From: a virus
Lineage: Duplodnaviria > Heunggongvirae > Uroviricota > Caudoviricetes
Strand: one strand, 5' to 3'
Length of the DNA: 50,109 nucleotides
Virus record (IMG/VR): IMGVR_UViG_2740892016_000006
Location: 1-50,109 of that record
Shown here: positions 1 to 50,109 of the stretch, piece by piece
Numbering within the stretch: position 1 is the stretch's first letter
Layout of the letters: every line of letters starts with the position of its first letter
The notes under the pieces: generated by a model
Database searches by the model: none
The model's input: only the letters and a program-made list of their open reading frames with translations
What the model was told of the DNA's origin: nothing
Position numbers and translations under genes: made by a program

Positions 1-104
1 ATGCCAGCGTTAATTAATCCAGGCAATGATCAGTTTTCGGTTATAAATTTCTTGCCTCACCAGGAATGCGCGGGATATAGTTTAAAGGTTGCCGCAAAAT
101 CGGC

Positions 105-380
105 AGCCGGGCGTAGGAACCCGTGTTATCTGAAGGCGATACTACACGCGCTAGGCGTGTTTTTTTGTGTCGCAGCTTTGACTCACCTAAAATTTATGGT
201 GTGGTGGCTGATTGTATTTTTTTATTTTTTACGCCACATCATCAGAATTATGGTAGTCCAGGCGGGGCAGCTTTCGGGCTGGCCGGTATCCTTCAGAGCC
301 GGTATTCCTACCCCCGTCTGGGCTACCACCCATGAGCGTAGGAACTCCGGTGGTAGCGTTACCCGCTATCTGAAGGAGGT
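105..380 (+). promoter_or_regulatory. P4-type RNA immunity region: two direct repeats (about 111-136 and 334-378, sharing GCGTAGGAAC and TATCTGAAGG) flanking a partially complementary segment (about 283-315)
   Basis: Seen in sequence: direct repeats plus a segment whose ends (CCTTCAGA, TTCCTAC) are reverse complements of the repeat ends; the second repeat overlaps the SD of the next ORF, matching the seqA/seqB/seqC logic of P4 cI RNA immunity. Confidence 0.45.
283..315 (+). ncRNA. Candidate CI-RNA-like element (seqB analogue); boundaries approximate
   Basis: Segment complementary to both flanking direct repeats; inferred by analogy with P4, no structure computed. Confidence 0.3.
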
Positions 381-387
381 TGCCATT

Positions 388-591
388 ATGGCTACAGTCC
401 CTGCTTTATCTCACCCTGAATTTACCTTTGTCTTTCTGGCTGTCCGCCGTACAGACCGTGATGCCCGTCCACGCCCTGTGCGTGTAATCGCAGAATGCGA
501 GCATGCTGCACGCCTTAAACTTGCCACTGAATTTATCCTGAGCTTTGCTGCCCGTATCCCTGTGAAAAGAGCCGGGGAGGTGGTTGCATGA
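388..591 (+). CDS. Small protein in the kil position of the satellite left operon (68 aa)
   Basis: ATG at 388 preceded by GAAGGAGG (372-379) that is overlapped by the second immunity repeat; in frame with the long track ORF 1..591, whose upstream part is judged non-coding. Confidence 0.4.
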   Translation: MATVPALSHPEFTFVFLAVRRTDRDARPRPVRVIAECEHAARLKLATEFILSFAARIPVKRAGEVVA

Positions 592-824
592 AATCCATGA
601 ATTTTAAGCAAGGCTGCATATTGAGTGAACAGGGGGAGAGTCGTCTGTTACGGGCGGCACTGGCCAGTGAGTTTCTTGCAGAGGTCTTGTCCGTGCCCAC
701 AGTGAATGGAGCGAGAACTGTTTCAGCGGAAGGCGCTGCGGCTTTAGTGGCCTGTATTGCCGAACAACTGGATGGCGTTGTTAAGGAAACCAGCACAATT
801 AAGGGAGTGATGCGCGATGAATAA
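588..824 (+). CDS. Hypothetical satellite left-operon protein (78 aa)
   Basis: ORF with GGGGAGG SD upstream; stop overlaps next start. Confidence 0.5.
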   Translation: MKSMNFKQGCILSEQGESRLLRAALASEFLAEVLSVPTVNGARTVSAEGAAALVACIAEQLDGVVKETSTIKGVMRDE

Positions 825-1227
825 TAATCAAAATTTAAAGGCGCATGCTTTACGAACAGCAGTCTTACGCTACTACATTGCTGATGCATTCATTTCCTTA
901 ATGGTGCGTGTTCATAATGAACCTGTTTATATTGAAGATGGCGAACGAATAGAACTCTCCCACGAAAAAGTGGTGAGTAATATTATTTACCATATTGAAA
1001 TGCCGTGGGTGAATGAGTTTGGGGCTGATGCTGGTTGCATACTGGCCGCAGAGAAACTGGAAAAAATGCTTAAACCAGGCTTTATGTCAGAAAATATTCG
1101 CCTGTCAGTTTTTGGTGTCACAGAGATGCGTGAGGTTTACCGGGATATTATTTTCGGAGCACCTGATGGCGAACTACCCGAAGGTTTTGAATTTGTGAAG
1201 CCGGAAGGTCAGGAGGTGCTGCTGTGA
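817..1227 (+). CDS. Hypothetical satellite protein preceding the primase (136 aa; epsilon/orf151 position)
   Basis: ORF translationally coupled to the alpha gene (overlap at 1224-1227). Confidence 0.5.
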   Translation: MNNNQNLKAHALRTAVLRYYIADAFISLMVRVHNEPVYIEDGERIELSHEKVVSNIIYHIEMPWVNEFGADAGCILAAEKLEKMLKPGFMSENIRLSVFGVTEMREVYRDIIFGAPDGELPEGFEFVKPEGQEVLL

Positions 1228-3911
1228 AAACACCGTCTGTATCCACGATTTCCGGAGCTGCAATTGGGCGCTGGCCTTATATCCTGTCAGCATTAGGTAT
1301 TAAAGTACCGTCCGCAGGACATCATGGGGCTTGCCCTGCCTGTGGTGGAAAAGATCGTTTTCGACTGGACGATAAAGCGGGGCGAGGGACGTGGTTTTGT
1401 AATCAGTGCGGTCATGGCGATGGTCTTGATCTGGTTCGTCTGGTGACAGGAAGAAAGATAAAAGAAGTCGCCGGGATGGTATCTGAGGCGCTTGCATTAC
1501 CAGAAATACAGGAGAAGCCCGCATTGCCAGCCAGGAAAAAGGCCGCAGGAAAAGAAGCGGGCGCGGAGCGATATACCAGACTCAGACAGCAGTCCTGCAA
1601 TGGTGAGCCGGTCTATCTGACAAATAAGAGCTTACACGGGTATTCACTTCCCTTGCTGTCACAGCCTTTGAATCTGGCCGGAATAACATTTTCCACCGGT
1701 TCATTACTGCTGCCTTTGACGGATATTTCCGGGAATATTACTGGTGGCCAGCTTATCAATCCTGACGGGGATAAAAGTCTGCTGCCCGGTAGCCAGCTGT
1801 CTGGCGCATTCATTGCCCTGACCGATATACCCGCTGAAACACCTGAACAGGTGATTATCACTGAGGGTTTTGCCACGGCGCTTACCGTCAGTCTGCTGAC
1901 TGAAGGATGGATCGTGGCGGCTGTCGCTGCCACCAATTTACTGAAGGTGACGGAGCAGATCCGAAAACGCTGGCCGGAAACCCGGATCATTCTGGCCGGA
2001 GATAATGATCTGGCTGACGGCAAAGAAAACACCGGGCGTATTCAGGCAGAGAAAGCCGCCAAAGCGGTGGATGGCTGGGTAACGCTCCCTCCGGTACGCC
2101 ATAAGGCTGACTGGGATGATTATCGGCAGGAAGTGGGGAAAGAACGGGCGAGAGATGCCTTTCGTGAAGAAATGACGCTGCATGGCAAAGGGCAGACCCG
2201 TTTACCAGAAGGGTTCCGGCTGACAAAAGAATATTTGTGGTACGACAAGCTGGTTAATAAGTCTGATGGTGATACAGAGATACGTAATATCAAAATTTGC
2301 AGTCCGTTGCGGGTGACGGCAATCACCAGTGATGCTGATGGAAGTAATTACGGGCGTTTGCTGGAATGGGAAGATACCAACGGAAACAGCCGTAAATGGG
2401 CAATGCCGATGGAGATGCTGGGCGGTAGCGGGGAAGAACTGCGCCGCGTTCTGCTGGTTAACGGGCTTTCTTACATCAACATTAACGGCATGGCCAGAGC
2501 ATTCCTGATGGAATATATCTCGCTGTGTAAACCGGACAGAAAAGTAACCTGTGTGAATAAAACTGGCTGGCACGGCGGGGTTTACGTTCTCCAGGATGAA
2601 GTGATAGGGCGCGAAGCCCAGTCAGTCATCTTACAAACATCGAGTGTGCAGGGGCGTGATTTTCGTGTCAGCGGCACATCAGAGGGCTGGCGTGAAAATA
2701 TAGGCCGTTATTGCATAAAGAATGCCCGTCTTGCCTTTGCGGTGAGTCTGGCATTTGCTGCCCCCCTTCTGAAACTGGTTGGTATCGGCGGTGGAGGTTA
2801 TCACCTCAAAGGGGAATCCACAGACGGTAAAACCACGACGATGAAAGTGGCTGCATCAGTATGTGGTGGAACAGATTTCTGGCATACGTGGCGGGCGACG
2901 GGGAATGCCTTAGAAGGAACGGCGAGCCGCCGCAATGATGCCACGCTGATGCTGGATGAAATCCGGGAGGTTGACGGCAGGGAGGCGGGAAATATCGCTT
3001 ATATGCTGGCTAACGGGCAGGGCAAAGCCAGAGCCAGAACAGATGGTTCGGTAAGGGAAACCAACCGCTGGAATCTGTTGTTTCTGTCTACCGGGGAACT
3101 GTCACTGGTAGAGCATGCGGCAAGCGCCGGGGAACGTACGTATGCCGGGGTTGAGGTCAGAATGATCCAGATCCCAAGCGATTCGGGCAAGTATGGCGTG
3201 TTTGAAGAACTTCATGGCTTCAGTAGCGGGAAAACCCTGGCTGAGCATCTTGAGCAGCACGTAGCGCATTATCATGGTGCACCATTCCGCGACTGGCTGT
3301 ATTGCCTGACCGCTGATCTGCCGGAACTGACCAGTCAGGCGAAAGCCTTATTGAAAGAGTATACCCGAAGGCTGACGCCGGAAAATGCCGGGAATCAGGT
3401 TGGCCGGGCTGTTACCCGTTTTGCTCTGGTTGCGATGGCCGGGGAGCTGGCCACAAAAGCGGGCATCACAGGATGGCCGGAGGGAGAGGCCTTTCGTGCC
3501 GCTCAAAGCTGTCTGGCTGCATGGATGGCTGACCGGGGCCATACAGCTAATCAGGAAGATAAAGCGGCACTTGAACAGGTTCGGGACTTCATGACGCGTA
3601 ATCAGTTCAGTCGGTTTGCTGACTGGAATGACGACAGGAACCGGCCTGTTTCAATGATGGGATTCAGAAAAGTCGATAAAGGAGACAACGTGACAGAGCC
3701 GGTTGTGACGTTCTACGTTCTCCCGTCAGGCTGGAAGGAGATCTGTAAAGGATTTGACTCGCGTAAGGTGGCCAGGTTGTGTGTGGACGCGGGCTGGCTG
3801 AAACCCGGTGAAGATGGCCGGACGCAAAACAGCATTCGCCTGCCAGAAATAGGGCTTAAACGTGTGTACCAGTTCAATACACAGGTACTGGGAAGCGCTG
3901 AACCTGAGTGA
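1224..3911 (+). CDS. P4 alpha-type primase-helicase (895 aa)
   Basis: GTG start after AGGAGG SD; N-terminal zinc ribbon CPACGG...CNQCGH, TOPRIM-like ILAGDND, D5-type NTPase with GESTDGKTT Walker A. Confidence 0.9.
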   Translation: MKTPSVSTISGAAIGRWPYILSALGIKVPSAGHHGACPACGGKDRFRLDDKAGRGTWFCNQCGHGDGLDLVRLVTGRKIKEVAGMVSEALALPEIQEKPALPARKKAAGKEAGAERYTRLRQQSCNGEPVYLTNKSLHGYSLPLLSQPLNLAGITFSTGSLLLPLTDISGNITGGQLINPDGDKSLLPGSQLSGAFIALTDIPAETPEQVIITEGFATALTVSLLTEGWIVAAVAATNLLKVTEQIRKRWPETRIILAGDNDLADGKENTGRIQAEKAAKAVDGWVTLPPVRHKADWDDYRQEVGKERARDAFREEMTLHGKGQTRLPEGFRLTKEYLWYDKLVNKSDGDTEIRNIKICSPLRVTAITSDADGSNYGRLLEWEDTNGNSRKWAMPMEMLGGSGEELRRVLLVNGLSYININGMARAFLMEYISLCKPDRKVTCVNKTGWHGGVYVLQDEVIGREAQSVILQTSSVQGRDFRVSGTSEGWRENIGRYCIKNARLAFAVSLAFAAPLLKLVGIGGGGYHLKGESTDGKTTTMKVAASVCGGTDFWHTWRATGNALEGTASRRNDATLMLDEIREVDGREAGNIAYMLANGQGKARARTDGSVRETNRWNLLFLSTGELSLVEHAASAGERTYAGVEVRMIQIPSDSGKYGVFEELHGFSSGKTLAEHLEQHVAHYHGAPFRDWLYCLTADLPELTSQAKALLKEYTRRLTPENAGNQVGRAVTRFALVAMAGELATKAGITGWPEGEAFRAAQSCLAAWMADRGHTANQEDKAALEQVRDFMTRNQFSRFADWNDDRNRPVSMMGFRKVDKGDNVTEPVVTFYVLPSGWKEICKGFDSRKVARLCVDAGWLKPGEDGRTQNSIRLPEIGLKRVYQFNTQVLGSAEPE

Positions 3912-3929
3912 TTATCGCGTGAGTCTTAT

Positions 3930-4130
3930 TTTTATGAGGTAACACTGGTAACAGAGGTAACACCCGTTACTGATGCGGTTCTTCAGTGTTACCAGTCAAA
4001 AATACTGACTGGTAACAGAGGTAACAAAAAATGGTGTGTTACCACGCGTTACCTCTTGATTTTGCTAACTGGTAACAGATTAAATCCTTTTAAATCAATA
4101 GCGTTACACGTGTTACCAGTGTTACACGTT
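3930..4130. repeat. Iteron array (crr/ori-like): about a dozen GGTAACA / TGTTACC heptamers in both orientations
   Basis: Seen in sequence immediately downstream of the alpha gene, e.g. GAGGTAACACTGGTAACAGAGGTAACA, CTGGTAACAGAGGTAACA, GTGTTACCAGTGTTACACG. Confidence 0.6.
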
Positions 4131-4193
4131 CAGAACAAGAGGTAGGGATCCAAATCCCTTCTTCTGGCGGGCAACAGTATAGGGCACAGAACG

Positions 4194-4466
4194 ATGAAGA
4201 TGATGAGAATGTACTGCCCCACATGTCAGGCAGTAGCACGGATAGGTAAAACAAACAGGAAACACCCACAACTGTACGATGTGTACTGCTATTGCTCTAA
4301 TGTGGAGTGCGGTCACTCGTTTGTGATGAATGTTGCTTTCTCCCATTCCGTTAGTCCAAGCGCGCTGAACGGGCAGGGAAGGGTTAAAGAGCTGATTGAT
4401 GCAATTCCACCCGAGGAACGGGAAAAGGCTTTAAAGTTGCTGCTGGCTGCGCAAAAGAATGGGTAA
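4194..4466 (+). CDS. Ogr/Delta-family zinc-finger late-gene transcription activator (true start may be ATG at 4203 or 4209)
   Basis: CPTCQ-x22-CYCSNVEC arrangement matching the P2 Ogr / P4 Delta C-x2-C...C-x4-C zinc finger. Confidence 0.75.
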   Translation: MKMMRMYCPTCQAVARIGKTNRKHPQLYDVYCYCSNVECGHSFVMNVAFSHSVSPSALNGQGRVKELIDAIPPEEREKALKLLLAAQKNG

Positions 4467-5145
4467 AGTATGCGTCGGGAATGGCCGATCTGTTCCCGGA
4501 ACCTGAACACAGGATTTCAGTTTATACGGTCATAAAATTATTATTTTTCAACTGGTTATCTTCTTCATGTTTCACAAACCTTCATAAAATCACACACCTA
4601 AAATTAATTATCCATTTAATATCATAGAGTTGCGTATTCAGGCCATAGATTCGACGGACAGTAAAACTGAAAAAAAATGAATTTCTTTTCATTCTTTTCA
4701 GTTCCTGTATCGCAGTACATCTCGAGGACTGGCACGGACTGGCGGTATCGTTTGTAAAAAATCCAGGCTGAAAATTTTTAGTGATATGAAAACCGCAGGC
4801 GGGTGCGGTGTAGTGCCGTTTTGGTCTGTCGAGCGTATATTTTCCTTTTTCACGATTGCTGCATATCAAAACGAATGTGCAGATATCAGGCCGTGTCAAA
4901 CCGTGAATCGTGGAGCCTAAATGCCCAAACTACGTTTGTAGACCTAGCTAGGGGAAGGTTTCCACATATACTGCTACCTATCTTCCAGTCGCTGGTGAGG
5001 ATCAAGGTAAGCTAACTGGTGAACAAGAAAAGTACTTTCGTATCTTGCGTACTCGTTTTTTTTGATTAGTATGTACAGGTAGTAACTGGATGGTGAGAAT
5101 TCGTCATAACTTATCAAATTGCATGATGTTTATAGAGTATGAGTA

Positions 5146-6027
5146 ATGAGTCATAATAAAAAGGAATATGCTAAATTTTTCCGTCGCCCCATTTTTTCAT
5201 CCTTAGCAAAAGGTAAGGATATTTCGGATTTATTTGGGAGTTTTGATTCTTACTGCTATGAAACACTGTTTTCAAACAATGATAATAATGAACATGAGAT
5301 TTCACTAAGGGATTTATTTACATCATTATATGATTTTTTGCGTCTGAATTATAGAAATGAATATGTTTATAAGACAGCACTTGTCAATAAAATAATATTC
5401 GGTAAGCACAGCCCAAAAACAAGTTCGTCGTCCATAGAGTTACCAATTAAAAACTCTATAGTGGATGTTGCGGTGTTTAATGGTACGTCTACAGCTTACG
5501 AGATTAAGACAGAGTATGATTCACCAAAAAGGTTGATTACTCAAGCCCCTGATTATTTGGATGTTTTTGATAAAGTGTATATAGTTACACATCCAGAGTA
5601 TGCAAGTAAATATTGTGCTTTAAATCTCCCCAGAGTGGGAGTTATGGTTTTGAATAAAAAAGATCAATTGAGTGTCATTAAGGAGGCAGATTCAAATATT
5701 GATTATATTAAAAGTGACAGCTTGTTTTCAGTTCTTAGAAAGGAAGAGTTCTTAGCTATAATAGAAGATTACACTTCAACTAAAATAAATATGCCTAACG
5801 GATTGGTTTATGAATATTGTAAAGAGATATTCATGCAGATGCCATTAAACATAGCAAATAAATACTTTATCTCTGCTATGAAAAAAAGATGTAACGATAA
5901 AGTTTTTTTGGATTATATTTATTCTCTTCCAGCATGTTTACGTGTTTTAGGTTATGCAACACCATTATCAAGAAAGCAAAAAGAATTCATCATGAATTTG
6001 ATGGATGTAAAAATTAAAATTTGTTGA
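5146..6027 (+). CDS. Hypothetical protein A of AT-rich cargo operon (293 aa); possible PD-(D/E)xK-like nuclease motif
   Basis: Long ORF in visibly AT-rich DNA with Asn/Lys/Ile/Tyr-rich composition; motif IVDVAVF...AYEIKTEYD resembles the D...ExK catalytic strands of restriction-endonuclease-fold nucleases (weak). Confidence 0.7.
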   Translation: MSHNKKEYAKFFRRPIFSSLAKGKDISDLFGSFDSYCYETLFSNNDNNEHEISLRDLFTSLYDFLRLNYRNEYVYKTALVNKIIFGKHSPKTSSSSIELPIKNSIVDVAVFNGTSTAYEIKTEYDSPKRLITQAPDYLDVFDKVYIVTHPEYASKYCALNLPRVGVMVLNKKDQLSVIKEADSNIDYIKSDSLFSVLRKEEFLAIIEDYTSTKINMPNGLVYEYCKEIFMQMPLNIANKYFISAMKKRCNDKVFLDYIYSLPACLRVLGYATPLSRKQKEFIMNLMDVKIKIC

Positions 6028-6048
6028 TATCCTCAGGAGTTGTAAGTT

Positions 6049-6999
6049 ATGTATAGCCCATATTTGTATGCGAGAAGTACAGAGTTATTATGCCTTAGGG
6101 ACCTCGTTGCGAAGGGAGTTAGCCTAAATGGTCTGCTACCAATTTTAGAACCAATTAACGTCAATACGAGAAATTTATTAACATGTTTAAATGTTTGGAA
6201 TTCTGACATAATTGTTATCCTTAATCCTTATCAGGAAGATTTTTCTTCACACAATAACGTCTTAACTTTAAATCAAAATTTATCAAGTGTATTAACAAAT
6301 AAAAATAATATCATCTCTGGATATCTTATTCAGCCCAATACAACGATTAATGATATTAATAATTGGTTGAATGCTAACTTAAATAGACGAGTTGCACTTC
6401 TATATGATAATCCATCATTATCCAACTCTGATATTCAGTTGTTGGCGACAAATCAATTGATTAGTTATCATGTTGTTTTAAATAATAAAATGCTTCCTAA
6501 TCAGTGCGCTCTTCTTCCTTTGTCGAAGTTAATTATTATTAGCGATAACTTTAGAAAGTTAGCAAAAAATGCTGATTATAATGGGCCGGAACTTTTCACG
6601 CACGCACATCAATTCGTGGGACAAAATTACTTAGGATTTGGCGATTATACAATTACTGGCCAGGTACTAGATCTTGGAGGTGGTCAACCTTCTGCTGTTG
6701 CCGCACATTTGGTGTTCAAGAATTTACAAGCGAATACAGTTTGGATTCGTCATTTTGTATCAAGCAACACGCAACGAGGAAGTTCAAATGTTACTGCAAA
6801 ATTTTTAGATGTTTCAGATCAAATTACAAATCTTGTTCCCCAACATCCAACCCAGTTTGGCAGCAACATTGGTCTTAACTATTATTATTACAATAGTCAA
6901 CCAACTGTAAGGCATTTCCCTGGGTTGCCAAAAAACAAACAGTATCAAATTACTCACCATATTTGTTTCATGCTGGATTTAATAGCAGGTCGTATTTAA
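6049..6999 (+). CDS. Hypothetical protein B of AT-rich cargo operon (316 aa)
   Basis: ATG at 6049 with AGGAG 10 nt upstream, 21 nt after gene A stop; Asn/Ser/Leu-rich, no motif I recognise; 3' end overlaps the integrase 3' end (6979-6999). Confidence 0.7.
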   Translation: MYSPYLYARSTELLCLRDLVAKGVSLNGLLPILEPINVNTRNLLTCLNVWNSDIIVILNPYQEDFSSHNNVLTLNQNLSSVLTNKNNIISGYLIQPNTTINDINNWLNANLNRRVALLYDNPSLSNSDIQLLATNQLISYHVVLNNKMLPNQCALLPLSKLIIISDNFRKLAKNADYNGPELFTHAHQFVGQNYLGFGDYTITGQVLDLGGGQPSAVAAHLVFKNLQANTVWIRHFVSSNTQRGSSNVTAKFLDVSDQITNLVPQHPTQFGSNIGLNYYYYNSQPTVRHFPGLPKNKQYQITHHICFMLDLIAGRI

Positions 7000-8154
7000 T
7001 AAGCTAGCGTACCATTCCATCATTACTTGTCGATCTTTAATATATTGCGCATGATTGTAAGTACCTCGAATAGAGTTCTTATCAACATGCGCAAGCTGCA
7101 TTTCAATCCAGGCACTTTCAAACCCATGCTCATGCAAGATGGTGCTCATGGTATGCCTGAAACCGTGACCCGTTAACCGACCGTGATAACCCAGTAGTTT
7201 TATCACTTTGTTGATGCTGGCTTCGCTCATTGGTTTACTGACGTCATTCCGGCCAGGGAAAACGAGGCTGTAATTCCCTGTTATTTCTTGCAGCTTTTTC
7301 AGGATATTGATCGCCTGAGTTGATAACGGAACCAGATGGGGGCGGCGTTTCTTCATCCGTTCTTTGGGGATCTCCCATAAGGCATTATCTAAATCAAACT
7401 CAGCCCATTCCGCTGCACGTAGTTCAATTGTTCGCACGCCTGTTAGCATCAACAGCTGCGTGGCGTATTTGGTAACTAAACTGCCCTGATAGTTATCCAG
7501 AGCATTAACGAACTCGGGCAACTCGCTTTCAGTCAGGAACGGGAAGTGTTGGGTTTTAGGTTTGTTGAGTGCGATAGCTAAATCGGGTGCAAAATTATAC
7601 TTTGCTCTACCAGTGGCAACAGCATAACGAAGCACTTCACCACAGCGGCGGCGGATCTTACTGGTTTGCTCTAGCGCACCTCTTTTCTCTATTTTTTGCA
7701 GGACGGTTAGCAGTTCTAATGGTTCAATCTGCTCAATTGGGCGCTGGCCGATAAAAGGAAAAATATCCTTTTCCATACAATTGAGAACCTCTTTTGCATA
7801 ACCCTCTGACCAGGTGGCTTTTTTCGATGAGTGCCATTCTCTGGCCACAGACTCAAAGCTGTTCTCATGCGCGAACTGCAAAGCAATCTTATCTGCTTTT
7901 CTGGCTTCACTTGGGTTTATCCCGTTGGCTAACATCGAACGCGCTTCATCACGTTTGGTACGTGCCTGTGCCAACGACACATCGCCATATACGCCAAAGG
8001 AAATCATCTTAGGCTTACCTGCAAAGCGATAGCGAAAACGCCAGCCTTTACTGCCCGCTGTGTCGATCAGGAGTGATAGCCCCATACCATCGTTAAGCGT
8101 ATAGGGTTTGTCCTTCGGTTTTGCTCTTTTTATTTGGATGTCAGATAGCAGCAT
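6979..8154 (-). CDS. P4-family tyrosine integrase (about 391 aa; start taken at the second Met of the track ORF)
   Basis: N-terminal KPKDKPY...WRFRYRFAGK arm-binding motif, C-terminal HGFRH...LAHVD...RGTYNHAQY catalytic region; homologous to the IntS-like integrase at 48952-50109. Confidence 0.9.
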   Translation of the reverse strand: MLLSDIQIKRAKPKDKPYTLNDGMGLSLLIDTAGSKGWRFRYRFAGKPKMISFGVYGDVSLAQARTKRDEARSMLANGINPSEARKADKIALQFAHENSFESVAREWHSSKKATWSEGYAKEVLNCMEKDIFPFIGQRPIEQIEPLELLTVLQKIEKRGALEQTSKIRRRCGEVLRYAVATGRAKYNFAPDLAIALNKPKTQHFPFLTESELPEFVNALDNYQGSLVTKYATQLLMLTGVRTIELRAAEWAEFDLDNALWEIPKERMKKRRPHLVPLSTQAINILKKLQEITGNYSLVFPGRNDVSKPMSEASINKVIKLLGYHGRLTGHGFRHTMSTILHEHGFESAWIEMQLAHVDKNSIRGTYNHAQYIKDRQVMMEWYASLLNTTCY

Positions 8155-8314
8155 GTGTATAGAAAAAAGATCGAACTCAGTTATACACAATGTTATACGC
8201 AAAGATGTATAGATTCCATTAGAAATAATGGTACTTTGCTGGACGAGTATAAGGAGATGATATCAGTTAAAACAGTGAGTTATGGAATTAATTGAACTTA
8301 GTGAGAAGTGTTCA

Positions 8315-8329
8315 TGGTGTCCCCTGCAG
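8315..8329 (-). other. Attachment-site core: TGGTGTCCCCTGCAG, reverse complement of the 3' acceptor end of tRNA-Arg (argW) as I recall it
   Basis: Sits between the satellite integrase start (8154) and torI (8403); argW sequence is from memory and must be verified. Confidence 0.5.
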
Positions 8330-8402
8330 ACATCTACTTGAAGCGGCAGGGGATTGATTGGAATGGTGTTTTTTAGATGTGAAAAAAATTTTACCCGCTA
8401 TT

Positions 8403-8603
8403 TTACCCATTGGCGCGGCTTAAGAGCTTATTTTTGAATTCACAATGGTCACGATATAACCATCTTGCTCGTCCGTGGATAACTTTGGCTTTAGGCAGGT
8501 CGCCGGACTTAATCCGGTCATAGATGAAGGTCTTACCGAAGCCAGTATCGGCCATGATGAATTTCAAATCAACCAGGGAATCAGGCTGTAGTTCGTGTTG
8601 CAT
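8403..8603 (-). CDS. torI: TorI-type excisionase / recombination directionality factor (66 aa, AlpA-like)
   Basis: Sequence MQHELQPDSLVDLKFIMADTGFGKTFIYDRIKSGDLPKAKVIHGRARWLYRDHCEFKNKLL matches the recalled E. coli KplE1 TorI. Confidence 0.8.
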   Translation of the reverse strand: MQHELQPDSLVDLKFIMADTGFGKTFIYDRIKSGDLPKAKVIHGRARWLYRDHCEFKNKLLSRANG

Positions 8604-8645
8604 GAGTGCTATCTCCGAATAGGGAATCGAACCTGCAAATCAGGC

Positions 8646-8668
8646 AATAAAAAACCGCCATCAGGCGG
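8646..8668 (-). terminator. Rho-independent terminator on the minus strand between early-left genes and torI
   Basis: Minus strand reads AACCGCC-TGAT-GGCGG followed by TTTTTTT. Confidence 0.65.
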
Positions 8669-8900
8669 CTTGGTGTTCTTTCAGTTCTTCAATTCGAATA
8701 TTGGTTACGTCTGCATGTGCTATCTGCGCCCATAGCATCCAGTGGTCATAGCAGTCGTTGATGTTCTCTGCTTCGATAACTCTGTTGAATGGCTCTCCAT
8801 TCCATTCACCTGTGACTAGGAAGTGCATTTATCATCTCCATAAAACAAAACCCGCCGTAGCGAGTTCAGATAAAAGAAATCCCCGCGAGTGCGAGGATTG

Positions 8901-9260
8901 TTATTCATTGCCGATATTCACCTTTATCGCGAACACCTTTACCGGTTTATCGCCGAAGTGCTGATGTGTGATTGTCTTGATTTCATATCCGTCATACGGG
9001 ACGTCAATTCTGCGGCTGGAATCGTCGCGCTTCGGATATCCCTTTGTGATAATCAGGCGGTCATACTCCCGGAACATAATTCGCTTATTCCAGTAGTCAT
9101 TACACAGGCGATACTCTTCCGTTTTCTCTCCACGAATCATGGCATCGAAGTATTCACCTTTGACGGAAAGTTGCAGGTTAGCCACGGTTAACCTCCTGCG
9201 CCGTTTTGATGATTGCTGCCAGACAATTCTTGCAAGGAACAAGCAGCGCTTCCTGCTCAA
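8901..9260 (-). CDS. Hypothetical early-left protein (start uncertain, possibly internal)
   Basis: ORF in leftward operon; the N-terminal Arg-rich stretch may be non-coding. Confidence 0.4.
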   Translation of the reverse strand: MSRKRCLFLARIVWQQSSKRRRRLTVANLQLSVKGEYFDAMIRGEKTEEYRLCNDYWNKRIMFREYDRLIITKGYPKRDDSSRRIDVPYDGYEIKTITHQHFGDKPVKVFAIKVNIGNE

Positions 9261-48951: not shown

Positions 48952-50109
48952 TCACTCCACCTTTTCATCAAGCCAATCCGCCCACCACTGCATCATTTCT
49001 CTGCGCTTATCGAGATACTGAGCATGGTTGTAAATCCCGCGCACAGATCCGACGTTGGCATGTGCCAGTTGCACTTCAATAGCATCAGCAGGCCATTCGT
49101 GCTCGTTCATAATCGTGCTGAATTCATGCCTGAATCCGTGACCGCTTTCCAGACCCTCATAGCCGATTTGTTTGATCACAAGCAGTACCGCGTTCTCGCA
49201 GATTGGCTTCTTCTTATCGTTGCGCCCGGCAAAAACAAACTCTGATACTGGTTTGGTGATTGAGCTTAGCGTAGTGAGAAGTTCAACCACCTGGTCTGAC
49301 ATAGGAACCACATGAATTTTGCGTCCCTTCATTACACTGGCGTCGATGGTGATAATCCTGTTTTCAAAATCGACGTTCTTCCATAGCATGGAGCGAAGCT
49401 CTTTCGTTCTTAGGGCTGTGTAGCGCAAAACTTTAGTCGCAATGAGCGATACGATACTTCCTGAAAATGTTGCCAGTGCTTTATTGAATGCCGGGATCTG
49501 GTCTGCAGGAAGAAACGGGAAGTTTTTCTTGCGGTATCCCTTCATGGCGTCAGCAAGGTCAGGTGCCGGGTTATATTTAGCCCTACCAGTGACAATAGCG
49601 TAACGGAAAACCTCGCCGCATCTTCTGCGGGCTTTATTTGCTCGCTCCATTGCACCGCGATCTTCAAATCTGCGGATTACTTCCAGCAGTTGCATCGGCT
49701 CAATCTCCTGAATTTCAAGGCCGCCGATGATAGGTAAAATGTCGTCATCAAACATTTTTGCAAGTTCAGTCGCATACCCTACTGACCATACTTGCTTCTT
49801 GTGCTCGTACCATTCCTTGTAAATCGCACTAAAGGAATTGTTGTTAGACGAAGCCTTTTTCGCCTTTACCGGATCGATGCCAACCGAGATGTCTTTCCTC
49901 GCAGTCCATGCCTTATCCCTTGCCTCCTGCAAAGTCATTAGCGGATATTTTCCTACGGTCAGGATTTTCTCCTTACCGTCAATCTTGTAGCGAAGCTGCC
50001 ATACCTTTTTCCCGGATACAGGGACATAAAGGTACAGGCCATTACCATCGAGAAGGCGGTATGGTTTTTCTTTCGGCTTTGCTGCTTCAATCTGCTTAAC
50101 AGTGAGCAT
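48952..50109 (-). CDS. intS: P4-family tyrosine integrase, IntS (KplE1/CPS-53) type; start codon at 50107-50109
   Basis: MLTVKQIEAAKPKEKPYRLLDGNGLYLYVPVSGKKVWQLRYKIDGK... matches recalled E. coli IntS; catalytic HGFRH...LAH...RGIYNHAQY. Confidence 0.9.
   Translation of the reverse strand: MLTVKQIEAAKPKEKPYRLLDGNGLYLYVPVSGKKVWQLRYKIDGKEKILTVGKYPLMTLQEARDKAWTARKDISVGIDPVKAKKASSNNNSFSAIYKEWYEHKKQVWSVGYATELAKMFDDDILPIIGGLEIQEIEPMQLLEVIRRFEDRGAMERANKARRRCGEVFRYAIVTGRAKYNPAPDLADAMKGYRKKNFPFLPADQIPAFNKALATFSGSIVSLIATKVLRYTALRTKELRSMLWKNVDFENRIITIDASVMKGRKIHVVPMSDQVVELLTTLSSITKPVSEFVFAGRNDKKKPICENAVLLVIKQIGYEGLESGHGFRHEFSTIMNEHEWPADAIEVQLAHANVGSVRGIYNHAQYLDKRREMMQWWADWLDEKVE

Follow-up and report, generated by a model that had tools for sequence, protein, structure and literature searches.

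Probable prophage-satellite junction at the tRNA gene argW and a T-arm-like element upstream of the excisionase gene torI

The interval 8155-8640 of IMG/VR virus record IMGVR_UViG_2740892016_000006, a Caudoviricetes sequence considered here at its full length of 50,109 nt (the window), is very probably the internal junction of a phage and a satellite integrated in tandem at the tRNA-Arg(CCU) gene argW. A 16-nt copy of the argW T-arm, located in the same interval just before the excisionase gene torI, is on this reading a fixed part of the phage recombination module and not a product of the junction. Comparison of related loci suggests that this copy is probably a tRNA-derived cis element under purifying selection, and a candidate binding site of the integrase or the excisionase.

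The probable tandem junction at argW

The initial annotation identified the sequence TGGTGTCCCCTGCAG at 8315-8329 with the 3' acceptor end of argW, in reverse complement, and proposed that it is an attachment (att) core shared by two elements. The identification was correct: compared with the E. coli K-12 gene, read directly as GTCCTCTTAGTTAAATGGATATAACGAGCCCCTCCTAAGGGCTAATTGCAGGTTCGATTCCTGCAGGGGACACCA, the segment equals its last 15 nt in reverse complement, without a mismatch. It occurs only once within the window and, together with the A at 8314, forms the 16-nt core CTGCAGGGGACACCAT (8314-8329, minus strand), which matches the argW 3' end. This core has been experimentally defined for the prophage KplE1 and is the known att core of the KplE1/HK620/Sf6/CUS-3 recombination module (PMC2951348); the HK620 and Sf6 records annotate it as the attP core. 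A search of the whole window with ARAGORN found no tRNA gene, and the argW pieces are therefore fragments only.

At this core, the torI end of a P22-like prophage that runs from 8314 to beyond 50109 meets the integrase end of a P4-like satellite (1-8313). The gene order of E. coli G749, whose chromosome is 99.77% identical to window positions 1-9186, bears out the proposal of a shared core: yfdC-argW-intS, the phage, torI-core-satellite integrase, and finally a core beside dsdC. The annotation of this genome, followed from the other side, lists evgS-evgA-emrKY-dsdAXC, a P4-like element, torI and a lambdoid/P22-like prophage, with intS at the far prophage end and then argW and yfdC. The core is present twice in the G749 stretch examined, once at the junction and once at the dsdC-proximal end of the P4-like element, where a copy at the satellite's other boundary had been expected. 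This distal copy has 20 nt identical to argW (ATTCCTGCAGGGGACACCAT) and, projected onto the window, would lie approximately 2.7 kb before its first base. At the opposite end, argW of G749 ends 161 bp upstream of the intS ATG and, since the window stops exactly at that ATG (50109), the gene would be found some 160 bp past the window end in the source genome if it is organized as in G749.

Phages that carry no satellite delimit the junction from the other side. The homology of HK620, Sf6, Kapi1 and other free phages to the window starts at 8314, the first base of the core (PMC2951348; PMC8787464), and matches to phage-only genomes stop at 8305-8314. On the tRNA strand, the core of the window is followed on its right by the satellite sequence GAACACT, whereas K-12 has the host sequence CCTTGTG and the HK620 attP has TTATCAG, from the P' arm. 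The two integrases of the window are paralogues that share a three-domain P4-type architecture in Pfam, with 45% identity over 387 aa between the satellite enzyme and IntS. The array as proposed has three cores, of which the middle one is found in the window along with both integrases, and the outer ones in G749; it weighs against this reading that the window itself contains a single core copy and that the outer copies are taken from a near-identical genome. The identical phage-satellite junction is present in 11 of 5426 complete E. coli genomes (RefSeq) and in nine IMG/VR loci.

Read along the minus strand, the proposed array would consist of argW, a core, intS, a P22-like prophage of the CUS-3/HK620 type, torI, the core at 8314-8329, the satellite integrase, and a third core beside dsdC. 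Both P4-type tyrosine integrases would recombine inside the same block at the argW 3' end, so that the junction core would be the attR of the phage and the attL of the satellite at once. Excision of either element, or of both jointly, would be possible in principle. The order in which phage and satellite arrived is indeterminable because both orders yield the same product.

Tandem arrays at tRNA genes and the variability of the argW-dsdC interval are already known, and the phage-satellite pair is a further instance of them. The interval is a documented hotspot (PMC8787464, PMC9659370), and both papers cite Moritz and Welch 2006 for the hypervariable island argW-dsdCXA. As in other arrays of this kind, related integrases use one att core and direct repeats of the tRNA 3' end stand between the elements; the difference is in the partners, since no description was found of a pair formed by a CUS-3/HK620-type phage and a P4-like satellite with sce7725/sce7726. 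The fragment also resembles pawZ, the argW 3'-fragment pseudogene at attR of the K-12 prophage CPS-53, in being a 15-nt tRNA 3' fragment that acts as distal direct repeat. Unlike pawZ, it is located between two mobile elements and not at a prophage-chromosome border.

Several variants of this arrangement have been observed. From position 9187 onward, past some 870 bp of common early-left sequence, the window shows only patchy similarity to the CUS-3-like phage of G749; the same junction is thus joined to different mosaic phage bodies. Many other neighbours adjoin torI-core, and junctions with some of them, in strain GPEC1176 (L002, about 5830-6100) and in IMG/VR, have hybrid cores that diverge earlier (...GGGGACGCCAG, ...GGGGACAC/TTTAAAG, ...GGGGACA/ATCC), which suggests that crossovers of argW elements fall within CTGCAGGGGACA. 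Eight prophage loci of other genera (L136, L139, L142, L145, L128, L206, L215 and L221, at about 2950-4200 in each) have the xis-core segment directly followed by an integrase that shares 31-47% identity with IntS, so that tandem partners using the argW core are frequent well outside E. coli. Moreover, 13 E. coli genomes hold an attP-like torI-core-P' arm sequence (TTATCAGTTCGC...), among them the 12,756-bp record NZ_CP146940.1. This would indicate phage-phage tandems at argW, or a circular or episomal form.

The T-arm-like element upstream of torI

The gene torI (8403-8603, minus strand) encodes the 66-aa excisionase (Xis), or recombination directionality factor (RDF), of the phage. The protein is identical to TorI of K-12 and HkaC of HK620, its gene is annotated as torI in G749 and S88, and it has no match in Pfam or NCBIfam at E<=0.001. 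Upstream of its start lies the T-arm-like element TTGCAGGTTCGATTCCC (8622-8638, minus strand), within which GGAATCGAACCTGCAA at 8623-8638 is the exact reverse complement of argW TTGCAGGTTCGATTCC, so that the match to the T-arm claimed in the initial annotation holds at 16 of 16 positions. TTGCAGGTTCGATTCC comprises the T-loop with the 5' T-stem before it and, after it, the 3' T-stem as far as its second base. In argW it abuts the core with an overlap of 1 nt; the initial annotation had described two abutting pieces split around torI. That description is incomplete, as the phage arm of most relatives holds a second TTCGAT. The conserved core of the element, GTTCGATTCCC, occupies 8622-8632, and its G at 8632 is 29 nt upstream of the torI ATG at 8603, with the Shine-Dalgarno (SD) sequence GGAG of torI at 8614-8617 and an intrinsic terminator (8652-8671, minus strand) just upstream of the element.

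The segment had been linked to the tandem junction, a link that its distribution does not sustain. The 16-mer is also found upstream of torI in the solitary cryptic K-12 prophage KplE1, in the virion genomes of HK620 and Sf6, and in satellite-free CUS-3 lysogens such as S88; it is therefore part of the phage recombination module and not of the junction. The CUS-3 GenBank record CP000711 begins and ends at TTGCAGGTTCGATTCC, annotated there as the attL/attR core, and contains no torI, while in the CUS-3 lysogens S88 and G749 torI and the genuine core CTGCAGGGGACACCAT come next (segments compared: L004 1-16 and L005 2693-2708 for CP000711, L008 4120-4620 for S88, L001 20400-20800 for G749). It thus appears that the record was truncated at this internal copy of the T-arm.

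For a wider comparison, xis loci were gathered from three sources: a single genome for each species, IMG/VR searched with three diverged queries, and phage records. Their upstream regions were clustered at <80% identity over the last 45 nt, giving 32 lineage representatives. Of these, 19 have an exact GTTCGAT with its G 26-30 nt, mostly 29 nt, ahead of the xis ATG. The lineage-conserved core is GTTCGATT(C/T)CC, found in several enterobacterial genera. The seven GTTCGAT positions are invariant by construction, because the representatives were selected on them, and the neighbouring, unselected positions are the informative ones: T in 100%, C/T in 79%, C in 100% and C in 89%, with a C three bases upstream in 95%. 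Farther from the motif, conservation drops to 37-68%.

The layout is kept as well. In E. coli, Citrobacter, Serratia, Pantoea, Edwardsiella, Erwinia and the Salmonella Emek-type phages, an intrinsic terminator, unrelated in sequence, precedes the motif, which after 4-6 nt is followed by a Shine-Dalgarno sequence and xis, and the motif is present in two tandem copies in Erwinia-type phages and in one other lineage. Even the Erwinia phage phiEt88 (L307 2200-2470), with an Xis 39% identical to TorI, retains AGGTTCGATTCCC at -29. The lineage consensus TTcCAGGTTCGATTCCC matches argW at 15 of 17 positions, and individual lineages extend the match in different directions: 3' in Serratia and one Pantoea lineage (GGTTCGATTCCTG), 5' in the E. 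coli lineage (TTGCAGGTTCGATTCC). The simplest reading of these alignments is that an ancestor had a longer copy of the argW T-arm, of which the central 11-13 nt would since have been held by selection.

The initial annotation had itself named a generic T-loop coincidence as the finding that would undo its claim. A chance resemblance with no common origin with argW could draw on the fact that the part shared across lineages, GGTTCGATTCC, closely resembles the universal T-loop consensus and is not specific to argW, and that the additional 5' match (TTGCA) is limited to the E. coli lineage. The exact 16-mer is nonetheless expected only 2.3e-5 times per window, within the tRNA it directly adjoins the att core used by the very same module, and 19 of the 32 lineages have the motif at this offset, with a consensus that matches argW at 15 of 17 positions; coincidence is thus extremely improbable. 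The other 13 lineages have no motif, for example where xis overlaps the upstream gene, and it is accordingly dispensable.

As far as the accessible literature shows, this conserved element before an excisionase gene is apparently undescribed so far. Three subscription papers (JBC 2007, Virology 2010, PNAS 2013) aside, no mention of it or of the inverted repeat described below was found in the KplE1-module literature, and a full-text literature search for GCAGGTTCGATTCC gave no match.

The phage arm and the inverted repeat

Between the core and torI lies the P arm of the phage attR (8330-8408, minus strand), part of the 135-bp attR (PMC3509656). The 73 nt counted initially from the core to the torI stop are correct. 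Two arm-type repeats ATTTTACCC, at 8388-8396 and 8400-8408 and reading GGGTAAAAT on the minus strand, are kept in all relatives compared, and the second overlaps the torI stop. The integrase gene intS (48952-50109, minus strand) is located at the far, argW-proximal end of the prophage, where the window ends at its ATG. Thus torI and intS are on the same strand about 40 kb apart, at opposite prophage ends, and attP falls between xis and int. A 135-bp attR that begins at CTCTTAAGCCGCGCCAATGG inside the 3' end of torI is enough for excision in vitro with IntS, TorI and IHF (PMC3509656), while the TorI sites GTTCG, GATCG and GTCCG have been described on attL, where five were mapped (PMC2951348). 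TorI sites and IntS arm sites, overlapping the intS promoter, are seen on attL in K-12 and G749; the attL of the window is past its right end.

The module agrees with that of KplE1 (CPS-53), HK620, Sf6 and CUS-3, studied by Panis, Mejean and Ansaldi (PMC2951348, PMC3509656), in its 16-nt core, its identical TorI, the GGGTAAAAT repeats after torI, the T-arm 16-mer before torI, and the position of attP between xis and int. It differs from the KplE1 module in that the attR of the window adjoins the P' arm of a satellite (GAACACT...) and not the dsdC side of the host. The module of phiEt88 is mosaic, combining its diverged Xis with an integrase 74% identical to IntS; its P' arm repeats are CCGATGTAACC in place of GTTCG, and its arm repeats GGGCATAA are shared with the Salmonella Emek-type phages.

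Beside the core, the P arm of most relatives contains a TTCGAT that lines up with the T-loop of the tRNA and precedes a GT, which means that two overlapping partial copies of the tRNA stand on either side of xis. All 34 sequences have this GT at a place where the tRNA reads TC, and it would confine strand exchange to its right. In the E. coli lineage the corresponding sequence (window 8330-8338) is GTAGATGT, with TTCGAT decayed to GTAGAT.

The core and the P arm are also connected by an inverted repeat, TCCCCTGC / GCAGGGGA, with one arm inside the core (8320-8327) and the other in the P arm (8346-8353), complementary at 8 of 8 positions across an 18-nt spacer. It had been suggested to be a recombinase or RDF binding site. 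The repeat is real and conserved, and a binding role remains plausible and unproven. Its seven central pairs are complementary in 79-100% of 34 diverged attP/attR sequences. Compensatory changes occur at three pairs: CCCCTAC/GTAGGGG in Rouxiella and TCCCTGC/GCAGGGA in Edwardsiella-type phages, with an 11-bp perfect repeat in two further loci (L126/L127). None of 500 shuffles reached the observed covariation score. The right arm is fixed by the tRNA, so that the left arm follows. The repeat probably serves the integrase as an accessory site or forms a small hairpin, with the reservation that the covariation rests on few independent events.

A further proposal is that the repeat and the core together fold, in the xis-sense transcript, into an RNA hairpin with NCCA at its end, which would mimic a tRNA acceptor minihelix and act as a processing or stability signal for the xis/int mRNA, in place of a DNA site for a protein. 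The hairpin is the minimum-free-energy feature of the transcript, its left arm co-varies with the tRNA-derived right arm, and the Salmonella Emek-type phages retain the arms with a spacer of 24 nt instead of 18, which suits a hairpin better than a fixed protein geometry; the locus L126 even has its 11-bp perfect stem followed by GCCA. The folding z-scores, however, are only -1.5 to -1.75, position 72 is unpaired in 30 of the 34 sequences, and the compensatory events are few, all of which makes this proposal improbable.

Possible functions of the T-arm-like element

Some roles can be set aside. The 135-bp attR starts inside torI and thus leaves out the element, which is ruled out as part of the att site required for excision (PMC3509656). 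A tRNA or other structured RNA is likewise rejected: the T-stem pairing is lost across lineages, RNAalifold predicts 0 pairs in the aligned leaders, and ARAGORN finds no tRNA. Neither a conserved RNA structure nor an anti-SD hairpin was found in the leader by RNAalifold, and the single-sequence fold z-score of -2.1 is driven by the terminator. Recombination between the two 16-bp T-arm repeats, which would leave argW::torI, and a form lacking torI in which an uninterrupted T-arm and core follow the phage terminator, as the CUS-3 record implies, were each found in 0 of 5426 E. coli genomes. Thirteen apparent full-length matches to T-arm plus core each consist of two pieces that are separated by 385 bp and enclose torI; they are attP-like junctions.

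The element could also be the core of a promoter similar to PI of phage lambda, activated by cII and transcribing int through xis and attP at lysogenization, its likeness to a tRNA being incidental. In lambda, PI drives int under the control of cII from a position that avoids the synthesis of Xis. The element has the same map position, after the terminator upstream of xis, and the homology with the lambda region upstream of xis has its end here, at about 8641. In the HK620 record, positions 1664-1702 are labelled as a 'phage integration' promoter that includes a cII site (1689-1701), and the Sf6 record places pI at the same site, corresponding to approximately 8610-8648 of the window, where a TTGC-N5-TTGC sequence overlaps the first four bases of the 16-mer. 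These annotations are predictions only, and the spacing of the TTGC boxes is N5 against N6 in lambda, which does not make up a cII-dependent PI. Promoter hexamers and cII boxes are not kept along with the motif: the TTGC boxes are limited to the E. coli lineage and missing from the Erwinia, Edwardsiella, Salmonella Emek-type and phiEt88 leaders, all of which retain GTTCGATTCC, and no conserved -10-like hexamer follows it. A sigma-70 scan of 8100-8900 detected no promoter-like site. Hence, a promoter of this type is decidedly unlikely.

What these comparisons leave as the preferred reading is a double-stranded DNA site for a protein of the recombination module. That the element is bound by either the integrase or the RDF appears about as likely as not; the integrase taken alone is a tentative candidate, the RDF alone a rather unlikely one, and the probability left after these and the promoter belongs to something not considered so far. 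The excisionase is suggested by the TorI pentamer GTTCG inside the motif (8628-8632, minus strand) and by the tandem copies of some phages, RDF sites often being present in tandem. The core-binding domain of the integrase is suggested by the identity of the motif with the left flank of attB; in addition, most relatives have in their P arm the TTCGAT with its invariant GT, a pattern reminiscent of a conserved half-site of the core type.

Each candidate binder meets an objection. Against the excisionase stands phiEt88, which keeps the motif while its P' arm has CCGATGTAACC repeats and not GTTCG; this favours the integrase, or some invariant factor. Against the integrase, the decay of TTCGAT to GTAGAT in the E. 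coli P arm means that this enzyme has no strict need for the T-loop bases. The fixed distance to the Shine-Dalgarno sequence and ATG would fit a role in RNA or translation, for which RNAalifold nonetheless finds no conserved structure. Were the element such a binding site, its position between the terminator and the Shine-Dalgarno sequence would allow it to gate the synthesis of Xis and/or, in the phage state, of the downstream Int. This would fit the control of excision in the KplE1 module, which is thought to act on the RDF gene (PMC2951348).

Origin of the T-arm copy

The element might be the scar of an ancient fusion of two argW tandem elements, the downstream one of which decayed to xis and the P arm, any function being secondary. 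Such an event would also explain why int and xis are on opposite sides of attP. It agrees with the two partial tRNA copies around xis, TTGCAGG-TTCGATT-CC upstream and TTCGAT-GT-nTGCAGGGGACACCA beside the core and in register with the tRNA: the likeness is on the outer flanks, as after a Campbell-type event or a duplication of the att site. The lineages keep different parts of the longer T-arm (GGTTCGATTCCTG in Serratia and Pantoea, TTGCAGGTTCGATTCC in E. coli), and the required tandem substrates with paralogous integrases are seen in the window and in loci of other genera. On the other hand, a simple tandem insertion would place the T-arm beside the integrase gene and not beside xis, so that an extra deletion is needed; the intermediates, argW::torI or an uninterrupted T-arm and core after the phage terminator, are absent from all 5426 E. 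coli genomes; and a neutral scar would not stay invariant while its flanks randomize. A fusion scar is therefore a doubtful origin.

A more specific model combines origin and function. The split of xis, attP and int would have arisen by fusion of two argW tandem elements in just the configuration of the window, and the T-arm would be an internalized hybrid att site that later became an operator, mimicking the left half of attB and gating Xis through the integrase or the excisionase. We consider this model unlikely as a whole.

The satellite side of the junction

The satellite integrase gene (6979-8154, minus strand) encodes 391 aa with the Pfam domains Arm-DNA-bind_3, Phage_int_M and Phage_integrase, and the G749 annotation calls it a tyrosine recombinase. 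The gene starts with the ATG at 8154, and not at 8155 as first placed; the distance to the core originally given as 160 bp is 159-160 nt. The arm between them (8155-8313, minus strand), which comprises the P' arm and the int upstream region and where phage homology ends, contains TATACA-type repeats at 8156-8163, 8180-8203 and 8206-8213 and a GAGTTCGATC motif (reverse complement of about 8171-8180). TATACAC repeats resembling those of the junction are found at the distal end of the satellite in G749, and the TATACA-type repeats may represent arm-type sites. A run of CCCAG pentanucleotide repeats is located just inside the dsdC-proximal att site of the satellite in G749 (about 9570-9610 of L001), outside the window.

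The hallmarks of P4-like elements are present according to Pfam: besides the P4-type integrase, an alpha-like primase with Zn-ribbon, Toprim and DUF927 domains (1224-3911) and an Ogr/Delta activator (4194-4466), along with an Icd-like gene at 1-591 by the G749 annotation. In G749 the element comprises genes for a helix-turn-helix protein, a capsid-like protein, the Icd-like protein, the DUF927 primase, ogr/delta, sce7726, sce7725 and the integrase, and a 'P2 family major capsid protein' is annotated in the part that lies left of the window.

Variable cargo is often found between ogr/delta and the integrase in P4-like satellites. In the window, this position is occupied by a pair of sce7726-family and sce7725-family genes (5146-6027 and 6049-6999, plus strand), and one protein of the pair matches the PADLOC model 'cll' (E=1e-18). 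The pair could possibly be anti-phage cargo.

Implications for phage and satellite biology

The junction adds one more tandem array to a known hotspot and helps to draw correct borders between prophages and satellites. The 16-bp internal T-arm repeat has apparently already misled annotation, leaving the CUS-3 record without torI. Beyond the junction, a tRNA-derived 11-mer fixed before the excisionase gene in several enterobacterial genera points to an unstudied control point of Xis and Int. If the model of an internalized att site were true, this operator-like copy of the T-arm would set the direction of recombination through the synthesis of Xis.

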